Shown: piece by piece, positions 12,001 through 18,000 of the stretch
How the letters are laid out: each line of letters starts with the position of its first letter
How positions within the stretch are numbered: the stretch's first letter is position 1
Source of the DNA: a virus
Lineage: Duplodnaviria; Heunggongvirae; Uroviricota; Caudoviricetes
Length of the DNA stretch: 19,738 nucleotides
IMG/VR virus record: IMGVR_UViG_2703718838_000006
Reading direction: 5' to 3' (one strand)
Made by a program: the position numbers

Positions 12001-15000
12001 GCCAGAAAATGAAATTAGGCAGCAAACCATTTATTTGAGAGGAATTAATATGTCATCAATCCGCTTAACTACGAGAATAAAAGAGGAAATAGCTCGTAAC
12101 GCTTTAATTAAGTCTGGGGTTTTCACTGAACTTGAAGAAGTAACAAAGTTAAAGAACCAGCTTGCACTTGACGCCAGAGTTATTGCGTTTGGCGGTAAAA
12201 AGAAAACTGAGGAAGTGGATCAGTTATCATCCAAGTTAGTAGCTATAAGTGAAGAACTTGAAAAACTGGGATGTTCATTTTACTCATACGATGTTCGTTC
12301 TACATCAATTTATCTGACTGTATCTGGCAGAAGAGTTGGCTGGCATTCATACGGAAAAGACGGCAACGGTGAAGATATATTGCTCCCCACCCCAGAAAAA
12401 GATAAATGCATGTTTGACGCAGAACACGAAATAACAAAAAGGTTTGATGAAATCTGCGCATTGCAACAAAAACTTGAAGCCAAGAAAAAGGATATCGAAT
12501 CAAATGTATGGGCTGCTTTGAACTCAGTCACAACAGTTAAGCGACTTATTGAAGTTTGGCCTGAAAGCAAAGAGTTGCTACCAAAAGAAGCAGATAAAGC
12601 AAGTACAGCACTTCCTGCTTTACGGGTAGAAGATTTGAATAAGATGATTGGACTTCCTTCCGAGGCCGCATAGTCGGCCTTTATTTTTAGCATAAACAAC
12701 AGAATAAACACTGCACTGTGTATTCATTCCAACGAGTGAATACACGGAGCAATGTCGCTCGTAACTAAACAGGAGTCGACTTGTTCTGATTATTGGAAAT
12801 CTTCTTTGCCCTCCAATGTGAGGGCCTTTTTATATGCATAACAATAACGCTTCACTCGAGGCGTTTTCGTTATGCAATCAAACAGAAGGAGCATCCTATG
12901 CAACAGTTCGCTATTGCAGGGGCGGCATCGGTTCGCCCTTTCAACCCGATTTTATCGGTGCAGCATTCACGAAAAAATATTTTAACCGGAGCAGACTTTA
13001 AACAACCAAGAATGAAAAGTTTGCTAGAAAAGCTTTGGGATATTTTGAAACAACAAGGCCGCCCATGAGTTTTACAGATAACTGGTCAGACGAAGAATTC
13101 ATTCGTCAGATGAAAGATTTAATCGGTAACGAAGGAGATATTCATGTCACTTGCAACCACAGTGAAGGAGAGCAAGTTACAGAGACGCATGTACACGCAG
13201 AAAGCTCTCTGGTATCGCCATAATGGTGACCGCGAAGGAATGCGGGTATGCCTTAATTTGTCCCGAGTCGAAGTATTAAATCAGCGTTATTTCCTTGGGC
13301 CGTGTCCATTCTGAGGTGAATTATGGATTTGAACAAATTCGATGAGCCATTCAGCCCTGAAGATATCGAATGGCGAATACAGCAAAGCGGTAAAACACGC
13401 GATGGCAAGGTGTGGGCTATGGTGCTGGCTTATGTCACGAACCGGGCAATCATGAAACGCCTGGACGATGTTTGCGGCAAAGCAGGATGGCGCAATGAAT
13501 ACCGCGATATTCCCAACAACGGCGGAGTTGAATGCGGCATATCAATCAAGATTGATTCCGAATGGGTAACCAAATGGGATGCTGCTGAAAACACGCAGGT
13601 AGAAGCCGTCAAAGGTGGTCGTTCAGGTGCAATGAAGCGTGCTGCCGTTCAGTGGGGAATCGGTCGGTATCTGTATAACCTTGAGGAAGGTTTCGCACAA
13701 ACATCTCTCGATAAAAAGCAGGGGTGGCACAGGGCAAAACTGAAGGATGGAACAGGATTTTACTGGCTCCCTCCATCGCTGCCGGGATGGGCAATCCCAG
13801 CATCAGATAACAAACCATCACCAGAAAATACCAACCAGAAATCTCCATCGGTTGACTGCGAACAAATCCTGAAAGACTTCAGCGATTATGCGTCAACAGA
13901 AACTGACAAGAAAAAACTCATCGAGCGTTATCAGCGTGACTGGCAATTAATGGCTGGCAACGAGGAGGCGCAGGCTAAATGCGTTCAGGTAATGAACATC
14001 AGAGTTAACGAACTAAAACAGGCGGCATAAATGGCAAGCAGAGGCGTAAATAAGGTGATCATTATTGGTCGCCTTGGGCATGATCCAGAAATCAGATATT
14101 CACCATCAGGAACGGCATTTGCAAACCTTACAGTTGCTACGTCAGAACAATGGCGTGATAAGCAAACTGGAGAGCAAAAGGAGCAGACGGAGTGGCACCG
14201 TGTGGTAATGAGCGGGAAACTAGCAGAAATTGCCAGCGAGTATCTGCGAAAAGGCTCTGAGGTTTATCTTGAAGGCAAATTGCGGACAAGAAAATGGCAG
14301 GATCAAAGCGGACAGGATCGGTTCACTACCGAAGTTATCGTAGGCGTTGGTGGAACCATGCAAATGCTTGGTGGCAAGCAAGGAGGCAATGAACAGTCTT
14401 CACCTCAGCGAAATAACGGTCAGCAACAAAGACAGCAACCTCAGCAGCAGGGAAATCACAGCGAACCACCTATGGAGTTTGACGACGATATACCATTTGC
14501 GCCAGTAACTCTCCCCTTCCCTCGTCACGCTATTCACGCAATTTAATCAGGAGAAAATCATGCCAGCGCCTCTGTATGGTGCGGACGACGCGCGCCGCTG
14601 TTCCGGCAATTCCGTATCGGAGGTGCTGGATAAATTCAGAAAAAACTACGACCTGATAATGTCGCTACCGCAGGAAACGAAAGAGGAAAAGGAATTTCGC
14701 CATTGTATATGGCTTGCAGAGAAAGAAGAACGCGAGCGAATTTACAAGACATCAATCCGACCATTCCGCAAAGCCACATATACCCACGTCCCTGAATATA
14801 TCGACCCGCGCCTGCGTAATTACCGCTCACGCTATGGCGCTATCAGTAATGACTGAGGAATTAACAATGAAAACAATGAAGCTAAACATCGACCTCGGAA
14901 AATACGTTATTACCGGAACCAAACACGATCTGATTCTTAGCGAAAGAGGAATTATCAAAGAAGGCGAGAATGCAGGGAAAGAAACACTAAGTCGTATCGG

Positions 15001-18000
15001 TTATTACAGCAAGTTTGAGCATCTGGTTAAAGAATTATGCAACCGTGAAATCCTGTTATCTCAGGCGCAGACGCTACAGGATATTCAGCAGCATATCGAG
15101 ACTTTAGGTGTGTCACTTAGCATGGCTGTTGACCAGTTCATGGAGAGTAAATCATGAGAGGACTTGCATACAATCCCAGCATTCTTCCGGCAGAAATGAT
15201 TATTCGCCAACGCGTAAAGCCAATGCCATCGAGAGAGGAATTGCTTAAGAGAAATTCTTTTCCATCAGTGAATCAAAACAAATATCTGAATGCGATGTGG
15301 CGGAGTGGGAAGAAATGAAACAAATGTCACTAATTGAGATGGATGGTTTTCTGAAAGGTAAATGCATCCCACGAGATTTAAAGGTTAACGAAACAAATGC
15401 TGAATATCTGGTGCGTAAATTTGCTGAAGCTGAGGCCAAGTGCGCGGCACTGGCGGTGGAGAATGCGGGAATAAAGTCTGCAATTCCTCAACTACGGGAT
15501 ATTGATGCTGACAATGACAATATGGATGACGTATCTCTTGCTGAAGACTTCGGATTCAATCATGCAATAGAACGGATGAGGAGACAGATACCTGAAACCC
15601 CAGCCACCGATGCTTTCCTGGCTGAAGTCCGGGCTAAGGCGTTTGATGACCTTTGCGCGGCGTTCGTTAAGCACGCGTCGGTGTCCGGGCTGGACGATGG
15701 CGACTGCGTTACGGTGAAAGAGGCGACTGACGCCCTGCTGCATTGTGCGGAACAGCTTCACGAGGGAGTGCATTCATGAGCAACCTACTACCATGTCCAT
15801 TCTGTGGCGGCGCAGCGCACGTTGCCAGCGAAGCAGATCACCCTGAATATGGCTCTGGCGGTCGATTCTATTTCGTTCGATGCGGTACGTGTCGCGCTCA
15901 ATCTGGTAGCAAATATGCAGCGCCTGGAAATGACTGCGCGATTTTTTATTCAGAGGTTAGAGCAGAGTGGAATCAGCGAGCAAAGGAGGCAACCAGTGAG
16001 CGAAATTAATTACCAGGCACTGCGTGAGGCGGCGGAAGCAATAAAAGTCGTGGCAGCGCCGCAAAAATTGCTTGCCTTTCGCATGAAGGTCACGCCGCAG
16101 GTTGTGCTGGCCCTGCTGGATGAACGGGAAAGAAACCAGCAATACATCAAACACCGCGACCAGGAGAACGAGGATATTGCGCTAACGGTAGGGAAGCTGC
16201 GCGTTGAGCTGGAAGCCGCAGAGAAGCGCATAGCAGAACTGGAAGCAGAACCTGTAAGGCAAGCTTACAAGTTGAACGAGCTGTCGGGCAACTCTCCGGT
16301 AACTCCGGATGGTTGGATAAGCTGTAGTGAGCGAATGCCCGCTCAAGATGATTGGATTTTAATTTATTCAAAGCACGGTGAGTATATGGCAGGCCAGGTG
16401 CAAGGGGAATACGTGGAGTTGAGCGACGGCACTTTATCGTGGTTAGGGAACGCCTTGTTCTGGACGCCGCTACCAGAACCGCCGCAGGAGGTTAACCGTG
16501 GCTAACCTGCAACTTGCCGTCAAAGGTGAATAACAATCCTCGAACTCGCGGGGATTTCTTTTATCTGAACTCGCTACGGCGGGTTTTGTTTTATGGAGAC
16601 AAGAAATGTCAGATTTGGCTATGAAGGTTTTGAAATGGCAATCGACTGGCGATGTTGGCATCAGTAGCGCAACTCTTGCCTCAATCGCATGTGGACTGAA
16701 AAAGAATATCTATGGTCATCACTTCGGTGCTCCACATGATGCAGCCGATTTCCGACGATGCGTTGCACTTGTTGAGCAGATCCCAGAAATCAGAGATTCA
16801 TTCGACAAAGTTGCAAAGCGCGTTCCGGCATTCAAAGGAATCCTCAACGAATGGGATTCTCTCGTTGCTCTGTTGAAGTCTGAAATGAAGATACACGGAA
16901 ACAAAGCACCAGAGACTTACAGAAGAATCAGCGAGCTACGCAAGGACTAACGCCTCACACTCGATGAGGCCTGTTCATTGCTCAATGATATCCAGACCTA
17001 CCATCGCCGCATCAATGCGGCTTTTTCTTGCGTGTAATTGCGGAGACTTTGCGATGTACTTAACACTTCAGGAGTGGAACGCTCGCCAGCGACGCCCAAG
17101 AAGCCTTGAAACAGTTCGTCGATGGGTACGCGAGTGCAGGATATTCCCTCCTCCGGTTAAGGATGGAAGAGAGTATCTGTTCCACGAATCAGCGGTAAAG
17201 GTTGACTTAAATCAACCAGTAACAGGTAGCCTTTTGAAGAGGATCAGAAATGGGAAGAAGGCGAAGTCATGAGCGCCGGGATTTACCCCCAAACCTTTAT
17301 ATAAGAAACAATGGATATTACTGCTACAGGGACCCAAGGACGGGTAAAGAGTTCGGATTAGGCAGAGACAGGAGGATAGCAATTACTGAAGCAATACAGG
17401 CAAACATTGAGTTATTTTCAGGACACAAACACAAGCCTCTGACAGCAAGAATCAACAGTGATAATTCTGTTACGTTACATTCATGGCTTGATCGCTACGA
17501 AAAAATCCTCGCCAGCAGAGGAATCAAGCAGAAGACACTCATAAATTACATGAGCAAAATTAAAGCAATAAGGAGGGGTCTGCCTGATGCTCCACTTGAA
17601 AACATCACCACAAAAGAAATTGCGGCAATGCTCAATGGATACATAGACGAGGGCAAAGCGGCGTCAGCCAAGTTAATCAGATCAACACTGAGCGATGCAT
17701 TCCGAGAGGCAATAGCTGAAGGCCATATAACAACAAACCCGGTCGCTGCCACTCGCGCAGCAAAATCAGAGGTAAGGAGATCAAGACTTACAGCTGACGA
17801 ATACCTGAAAATTTATCAAGCAGCAGAATCATCACCATGTTGGCTCAGACTTGCAATGGAACTGGCTGTTGTTACCGGGCAACGAGTTGGTGATTTATGC
17901 GAAATGAAGTGGTCTGATATCGTAGATGGATATCTTTATGTCGAGCAAAGCAAAACGGGCGTAAAAATTGCCATACCTACAACATTGCATGTTGATGCTC

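Follow-up and report, generated by a model that had tools for sequence, protein, structure and literature searches.

A mosaic block of seven early genes between ssb and xis in a lambdoid prophage of Escherichia coli

Gene content of the block

The DNA analysed here is a viral stretch of 19,738 nucleotides (nt) assigned to the Caudoviricetes (IMG/VR record IMGVR_UViG_2703718838_000006; 'the window' below denotes this whole stretch). It represents one arm of a lambdoid prophage of Escherichia coli, and its plus strand runs in the early-left (pL) direction. The subject is a block of seven plus-strand genes that fills positions 14560-16950 between ssb and the excisionase gene xis, and that a preliminary description, made from the sequence alone, had regarded as a likely anti-defence locus marked by a Lar-type anti-restriction gene. 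The block was found to be an ordinary, already annotated region, the counterpart of the 'exo-xis' region of lambda and the 'ea' region of P22, and nothing in it is new in kind; its strongest counter-defence gene is abc2, not the Lar-type gene. The genes, and the one larger gap between them, are as follows (all on the plus strand).

14560..14856, plus strand: abc2, 98 amino acids (PF11043)
14867..15157, plus strand: DUF5405 family gene, 96 amino acids (Pfam)
15154..15318, plus strand: DUF2737 family gene, 54 amino acids (PF10930); ATGA overlap with the DUF5405 gene
15315..15779, plus strand: Ead/Ea22-like gene (P22 EaE-type), 154 amino acids (PF13935, marginal); ATGA overlap with the DUF2737 gene
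15776..16009, plus strand: Lar-family zinc ribbon gene, 77 amino acids (PF14354); ATGA overlap with the EaE-type gene
15996..16505, plus strand: Ea22-type gene with DUF551 domain, 169 amino acids; GTG start after AAGGAGG, 14-nt overlap with the Lar-family gene
16506..16605, plus strand: gap between genes; two terminator-like hairpins (16535-16556 and 16567-16586), both with a T-rich run behind them
16606..16950, plus strand: gene for a 114-amino-acid protein of no curated family; last gene before xis

The tight coupling of seven co-directional open reading frames (ORFs) that the preliminary description had reported was confirmed, as was their position between ssb (PF00436, 2.1e-38) and xis (phrog_629, 5e-23). 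Coding density was about 95%; abc2 and the DUF5405 gene are separated by 10 nt, the ATGA overlaps lie at 15154, 15315 and 15776, and the gap before the last gene measures 100 nt. A ribosome-binding site of the GGAG type was found 5' of each of the seven genes. All seven exact protein sequences were already on record at NCBI, six with family names and the 114-amino-acid protein as 'hypothetical protein', and the block genes are therefore real and not chance ORFs; two of the exact records (KXP96453.1 and KXP96572.1) came from a 144,924-bp E. coli contig. The ORFs of 98, 96, 54, 154 and 114 amino acids had been described as having no recognisable function. Pfam placed the first four in the Abc2, DUF5405, DUF2737 and Ead/Ea22-like families; the statement is mistaken for the first and goes too far for the next three, the 114-amino-acid protein alone having no Pfam or NCBIfam family. 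The sequence features and the Lar and DUF551/Ea22 calls of that description stood.

The product of the first gene, overlooked in the preliminary description, is identified by homology as Abc2, the RecBCD-hijacking protein of P22. Its residues 1-98 matched PF11043 over profile positions 1-97 (1.4e-60; 201.9 bits, cut-off 25), and further matches were obtained with phrog_656 ('abc2 anti-RecBCD', 5.6e-55) and, over the full length, with the P22 chain 8b1t_A in the PDB ('Anti-RecBCD protein 2', 8.7e-55, 97 versus 98 amino acids; PDB 8b1t/8b1u), which was solved in complex with RecBCD. The NCBI record of the identical protein is 'phage anti-RecBCD protein' (WP_061360005.1). P22 Abc2 binds RecC and modifies RecBCD activity, and Abc2-RecBCD structures have been described (PMC9836394). 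As in P22, the gene stands next to an Erf-type recombinase gene; ssb and erf (PF04098) adjoin it upstream in the same arrangement as in Sf6, HK022 and E. coli 2313 (RefSeq annotation). P22 differs in having abc1 between abc2 and erf, a slot that is occupied here, as in Sf6, by ssb. Functionally, abc2 is the last gene of an erf-ssb-abc2 recombination module.

The Lar zinc-ribbon pattern noted earlier in the 77-amino-acid protein was borne out. PF14354 was matched above threshold (1.4e-09; 38.5 bits, cut-off 28.6; residues 3-69 on profile positions 2-58 of 58), phrog_599 was also matched, and the signature consists of CPFCG...CxxC plus a C-terminal WNxR. C7, C10, C36, C39, W65, N66 and R68 were invariant in an alignment with Rac RalR/Lar, Sf6 gp20 and the E. 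coli 2313 protein, the four cysteine ligands being conserved with Rac Lar/RalR. Lar (= RalR) of the Rac prophage is likewise a small Cys4 zinc ribbon with a C-terminal WNxR, and it is encoded just 3' of the recombination genes and 5' of xis/int in the early-left operon. The protein of the block differs from it by a 13-residue insertion between the cysteine pairs and a longer tail, and the rcbA/ralA partner of Rac Lar is absent around its gene. The source for restriction alleviation by Rac Lar is King & Murray 1995 (cited in PMC4041452 and PMC11482910); this founding member is now also annotated as the endodeoxyribonuclease toxin RalR, with the small RNA (sRNA) RalA as antitoxin (PMC4041452). 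An anti-restriction role is assigned to the protein of the block by homology to Rac Lar only. In one related prophage (L014; GCA_051615685.1, CP195759.1) Ral (PF11058, 1-8) occurs together with the identical Lar-like protein (4001-4234), which suggests that the two are not simply redundant. At another locus (L009, 6697-6876) a second, weaker Lar_restr_allev ORF adjoins xis.

The DUF551/Ea22-like ORF of the preliminary description was recovered as the 169-amino-acid gene, with Ead_Ea22 (PF13935) at residues 25-83 (3.5e-21; 76.7 bits, cut-off 27) and DUF551 (PF04448) at residues 106-164 (1.9e-09). Its product has the predicted three-part architecture of Ea22, with a short N-terminus, a putative coiled coil and an exchangeable C-terminal domain, and this architecture equals that of the 'Ea22 V2' variant of Stx phages, in which the C-terminal domain is DUF551 (PMC10834534). 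A pro-lysogenic role of the Ea22 family has been described in lambda and Stx phages (PMC7093339, PMC10834534). The N-terminal part of the 169-amino-acid protein aligned with an Ead/Ea22-like gene and the C-terminal part with a DUF551 gene, which are two adjacent separate genes in E. coli 2313. Because the exact protein (WP_061360013.1) was the sole member of its 90% cluster, seen on one contig, and its parts are separate in close relatives, the hybrid probably arose recently by deletion or recombination.

The 154-amino-acid protein matched phrog_614 (6.7e-47), and its NCBI name is 'ead/Ea22-like family protein'; PF13935 was reached marginally (30.1 bits, cut-off 27; profile positions 83-138 only). 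It was 65% identical to its positional counterpart in E. coli 2313, the alignment containing internal indels; its ends are conserved and its middle is variable. In other phage records the gene at this position carries the name of P22 EaE.

The 96-amino-acid protein belongs to the DUF5405 family (Pfam) and is like Sf6 gp24 and P2 orf83. Its family is named 'replication initiation protein' in phrog_154 and in some GenBank records, a name for which the Pfam hit and the predicted fold gave no support. The 54-amino-acid protein is a DUF2737 member (PF10930, 2.2e-31; phrog_1117, 3.2e-37), has the same name in RefSeq and resembles HkaI of HK620 and gp38 of HK97. None of the neighbours of the Lar-type gene proved to encode a structural or replication protein.

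For the 114-amino-acid protein no Pfam or NCBIfam family was found, and phrog_1229, whose function is unassigned, was the sole library match. The structure was predicted with high confidence as all-helical with seven helices (predicted local distance difference test, pLDDT, 93.6; predicted template modelling score, pTM, 0.87). The model gave no fold match among solved structures in the PDB, and a profile search against Pfam and PDB sequences returned noise only; fold matches in BFVD were uncharacterised proteins, among others from a Clavibacter phage and a giant virus. In a profile search of 1.84 billion cluster representatives, 2787 relatives were obtained at E<=1e-3 and 618 at E<=1e-10. In a 35-sequence alignment reaching down to about 30% identity, W11, S20, P43, D45, D48, R51, C52 and W83 were invariant. 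The family was found in enterobacterial contigs and in high-GC phage contigs, the latter being probably actinobacterial. Enterobacterial copies repeatedly occupy the last or last-but-one position before the excisionase gene, whatever the excisionase type, and the distant enterobacterial relatives likewise sit just before an excisionase. No recurrent genomic partner was found for distant relatives; in the sole high-GC phage contig in which crude ORF calling gave a readable family ORF (L017), that ORF adjoins a predicted ATPase-like ORF. Domain fusions were tried as a clue to function and set aside as too thin: of the 20 longer members compared with Pfam only one (P0242) was informative, a fusion to a PolyA_pol head plus HD that resembles CCA-adding enzyme; one had a weak zinc ribbon, and the other extensions were heterogeneous. 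An N-terminal zinc ribbon is present in some relatives and a tandem duplication in one (P0143). This is the sole really uncharacterised protein of the block, and it marks a real annotation gap, not evidence of a new system.

Relatives of the region and mosaicism

The same order of genes was found in the 'ea' region of P22- and HK022-like phages (Sf6 gp19-gp25, the hka genes of HK620, HK022, HK106 and vB_EcoP-720R6), namely recombinase, ssb, abc2, DUF5405, DUF2737, EaE-like, Ead/Ea22, Lar-like/DUF551, small ORFs, xis and int, with 93-96% DNA identity across shared modules. Two differences were noted: in Sf6 the Lar gene follows the Ea22 gene, whereas here it precedes it, and the Ea22 and DUF551 parts are fused here in one protein. 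The same order is annotated in E. coli 2313 (RefSeq) and in phages vB_EcoP-720R6, Sf6, HK106, HK022 and Gally; in E. coli 2313 it reads Rad52/22, ssb, 3'-5' exonuclease, anti-RecBCD, DUF5405, DUF2737, hypothetical, Lar family, ead/Ea22-like, DUF551, ASCH, 114-amino-acid hypothetical and xis. The exo-xis region of lambda and Stx phages occupies the same slot between recombination genes and xis in the pL operon and shares the Ea22-type protein, with the DUF551 domain in the Stx variant, but Abc2, DUF5405, DUF2737, Lar and the 114-amino-acid gene of the block are not lambda genes. No Pfam hit to homologues of orf60a, orf61, orf63 or ea8.5 was obtained in the seven ORFs; Lambda_ea8_5 is present in the related prophage that carries Ral (L014) and not here. 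The earlier placement at the lambda 'b/ea' position is imprecise: the lambda equivalent is the ea (exo-xis) part of the pL operon, the b region being situated beyond att.

Parts of the 2.5-kb block matched 584 phage records, including HK022, HK106, Sf6, CUS-3, Stx phages and P22-like phages, and of 5426 complete E. coli genomes, 3665 contained parts in shuffled combinations. Only one place covered 80% or more of the block, and among the phages listed the maximum was 74% contiguous. The identical 77-amino-acid Lar protein was indexed in 576 blocks of a public assembly collection. In the eight places shown of these 576, its gene was always preceded by a variable ORF of 138-188 amino acids, which itself followed DUF2737 in seven, and an Ead_Ea22 gene overlapped the end of the Lar gene in five. 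The slot of the identical protein was the same throughout these prophages, whose recombination module was of the RecT or the Erf kind and whose integrases were of several sorts. The particular combination is a product of the usual exchange of modules at gene boundaries, classical for the lambda 'exo-xis' and P22 'ea' regions, and the position of the block is a generic one in lambdoid phages, filled with non-essential early genes in mosaic fashion.

Prophage setting and signals

On the plus strand the order is S24 repressor, N-like region, Nmad5 gene, erf, ssb, the seven-gene block, xis and int. The minus-strand arm carries P22-type Cro, CII, a replication initiator, a Toprim/DnaB-type primase-helicase, Rha/ANT antirepressor-type genes and a Q antiterminator. 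The features that flank the block are listed below.

13323..14030, plus strand: erf-type (Rad52/22 family) single-strand annealing recombinase gene (PF04098, 5e-26; labelled 'Erf-like' at the equivalent position of Sf6)
14031..14546, plus strand: ssb (PF00436)
17054..17272, plus strand: lambda-type excisionase (Xis) gene (phrog_629; PF07825 Exc on the equivalent genes in related prophages)
17250..18320, plus strand: lambda-type integrase (Int) gene, 356 amino acids (ORF call; in the related locus L010 the same Int is followed by a pectinesterase-family gene)
18394-18408, minus strand: exact lambda att core GCTTTTTTATACTAA, between int and host ybhC

The att core marks the end of the prophage, which is integrated at the classical lambda attB of E. 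coli, and the prophage as a whole combines early genes like those of HK022, Sf6 and P22 with lambda-type xis and int. The gene order gives the plus strand as the early-left direction, and the block forms the distal end of the pL operon, with xis, int and att downstream.

No sigma-70 promoter-like site was predicted in 14400-17400. Over the region scanned, a consensus search gave five terminator-like sites where 3.1 were expected, which is weak evidence. A GC-rich hairpin at 17006-17021 (plus strand), followed by TTTTTCTT, lies just 5' of xis; this hairpin and those at 16535-16586 may act as N-suppressible terminators dividing the distal operon into parts.

Three further observations were made elsewhere in the window. 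In the interval from the N-like region to erf, an Nmad5 gene (nucleotide modification associated domain 5; PF18757, 1.2e-71) lies at 11990-12673 (plus strand), its likely true start being the internal ATG of 'MSSIRLTT...'; the domain is unusual for a lambdoid early region and little characterised, and might play a part in DNA modification or counter-defence. A 19-nt repeat, GGGCAGCTCCTGCCCCACC, is present in three exact copies at 8975-9167 within the gene of a 301-amino-acid HTH_36 replication initiator (8553-9458, minus strand); the copies adjoin the part of the window that is richest in AT (9001-9500, GC 0.33) and look like origin iterons internal to the initiator gene, a placement known from lambda O. 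On the rightward (pR-side) arm, two Rha-domain genes (839-1393 and 4586-5308, both minus strand; Rha+ORF11CD3 and Rha+ANT/KilAC) flank the Q antiterminator gene (3132-3755), one on each side.

Function of the block and alternative explanations

The block is very probably the distal, non-essential accessory part of a pL-type operon in a mosaic lambdoid prophage, with a mixed bag of functions. Its genes, lying downstream of the repressor/N-like region, would be read through from pL. From their organisation, ribosomes would be handed from gene to gene by translational coupling at the ATGA and 14-nt overlaps, and by comparison with lambda and P22 the products would be made together within minutes of infection or induction. 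Abc2, for which homology is strong, would bind RecBCD and turn the end-degrading host nuclease into a partner of Erf/SSB recombination, so that phage DNA ends are protected. By analogy with Rac Lar, the Lar-family protein would most likely alleviate type IA restriction and enhance the modification of incoming unmodified phage DNA. The 169-amino-acid protein and, by weaker similarity, the 154-amino-acid protein would form coiled-coil oligomers with exchangeable C-terminal domains (here DUF551) and, if they act like the Ea22 proteins of lambda and Stx phages, would bias the lysis-lysogeny decision towards lysogeny as oligomeric scaffolds. Our best guess for the DUF5405, DUF2737 and 114-amino-acid proteins is that they are small, early-expressed binders of host or phage proteins.

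Several points weigh against this explanation. Promoter absence and weak terminators fit read-through from pL without proving it. The 154-amino-acid protein matches Ead_Ea22 only marginally, over the C-terminal part of its sequence. Orthologues of the lambda exo-xis genes are absent, and the functional analogy is drawn from position and Ea22 alone. The Lar-family protein scored 29.4 bits with TIGR03655 (the anti_R_Lar subfamily of NCBIfam), under the cut-off of 39.6, and its identity to Rac Lar is only 26-32%; for both reasons restriction alleviation may not be conserved. Despite the sub-threshold score, the name that PGAP gives to the identical protein is 'Lar family restriction alleviation protein', and the 'Lar family' label goes back to a single 1995 phenotype of this distant relative, which is now also termed a DNase toxin.

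One alternative is that the block except abc2 is a module tuning the lysis-lysogeny decision like the exo-xis region of lambda and Phi24B, the Lar-like protein acting on phage development as well. Position and early expression class are shared with exo-xis, overexpression or deletion of which alters lysogenisation and induction (PMC3824215, PMC6213356, PMC10789677), and two of the six genes concerned are of the Ea22 type, for which such a reading is plausible. For the six genes together it is possible but doubtful: apart from Ea22, the characterised exo-xis genes orf60a, orf61, orf63 and ea8.5 have no homologue here, and the essentiality of a 90% Lar homologue in phage Bas63 is host-dependent and tracks restriction systems (PMC11482910).

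A dedicated anti-defence island, in which the DUF5405, DUF2737, 114-amino-acid and both Ead/Ea22-type proteins would be further inhibitors of host immunity co-expressed with Lar and Abc2, appears unlikely. It draws on counter-defence homology in two of the seven genes, on the small, early, non-essential and fast-shuffling nature of the block genes, a class that was enriched for counter-defence factors in a functional screen in which the P22 abc2/abc1 neighbourhood served as accessory region (bioRxiv 10.1101/2023.04.06.535777), and on the wide occurrence of the 114-amino-acid protein, with its invariant polar residues, in unrelated phages. A PADLOC scan of the block gave PbeC as the sole hit, on the coiled-coil part of the 169-amino-acid protein (E=0.0097, 12.5 bits); it was treated as noise, and a reading of the block as a defence system was rejected because the scan yielded nothing else. 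Of the anti-defence locus proposed in the preliminary description, Abc2, whose family is proven in counter-defence and recombination, and, by homology only, Lar are kept, and the neighbours are left without a match in any defence library; the idea that Lar marks them as anti-defence candidates received no direct support, since there was no meaningful PADLOC match, a pro-lysogenic role is published for the Ea22 family, to which the 169-amino-acid and partly the 154-amino-acid protein belong, and the slot is generic.

It is rather improbable that the 114-amino-acid protein, as founder of a large uncurated family, serves as a novel early effector, perhaps enzymatic, of host takeover or counter-defence; if it did, an effector would have escaped annotation though a large fraction of E. 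coli genomes carry it. Highly improbable, finally, is that the Lar-family protein, instead of being anti-restriction, belongs to a prophage-stabilising type I toxin-antitoxin pair as its RalR-type DNase toxin: RalR itself is so annotated, with its antitoxin RalA, and shares the Cys4 and WNxR signature, but BLAST of Rac ralA against the window gave chance matches of at most 11 nt only, no tRNA and no Rfam family at threshold was found in the window, rcbA, the host gene of ralA in Rac, is absent, and the gene is translationally coupled on both sides within a long early operon (ATGA upstream, 14-nt overlap downstream) instead of forming a stand-alone cassette together with an adjacent or antisense sRNA gene.

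The distal accessory part of the pL-type operon described here is therefore a textbook set of mosaic early accessory genes and carries little weight as a discovery; its practical value lies in the correction that places Abc2 over Lar as the counter-defence gene. The Lar-like, DUF5405, DUF2737, DUF551 and 114-amino-acid families are extremely common in E. coli and would be cheap targets for anti-defence and lysogeny screens.

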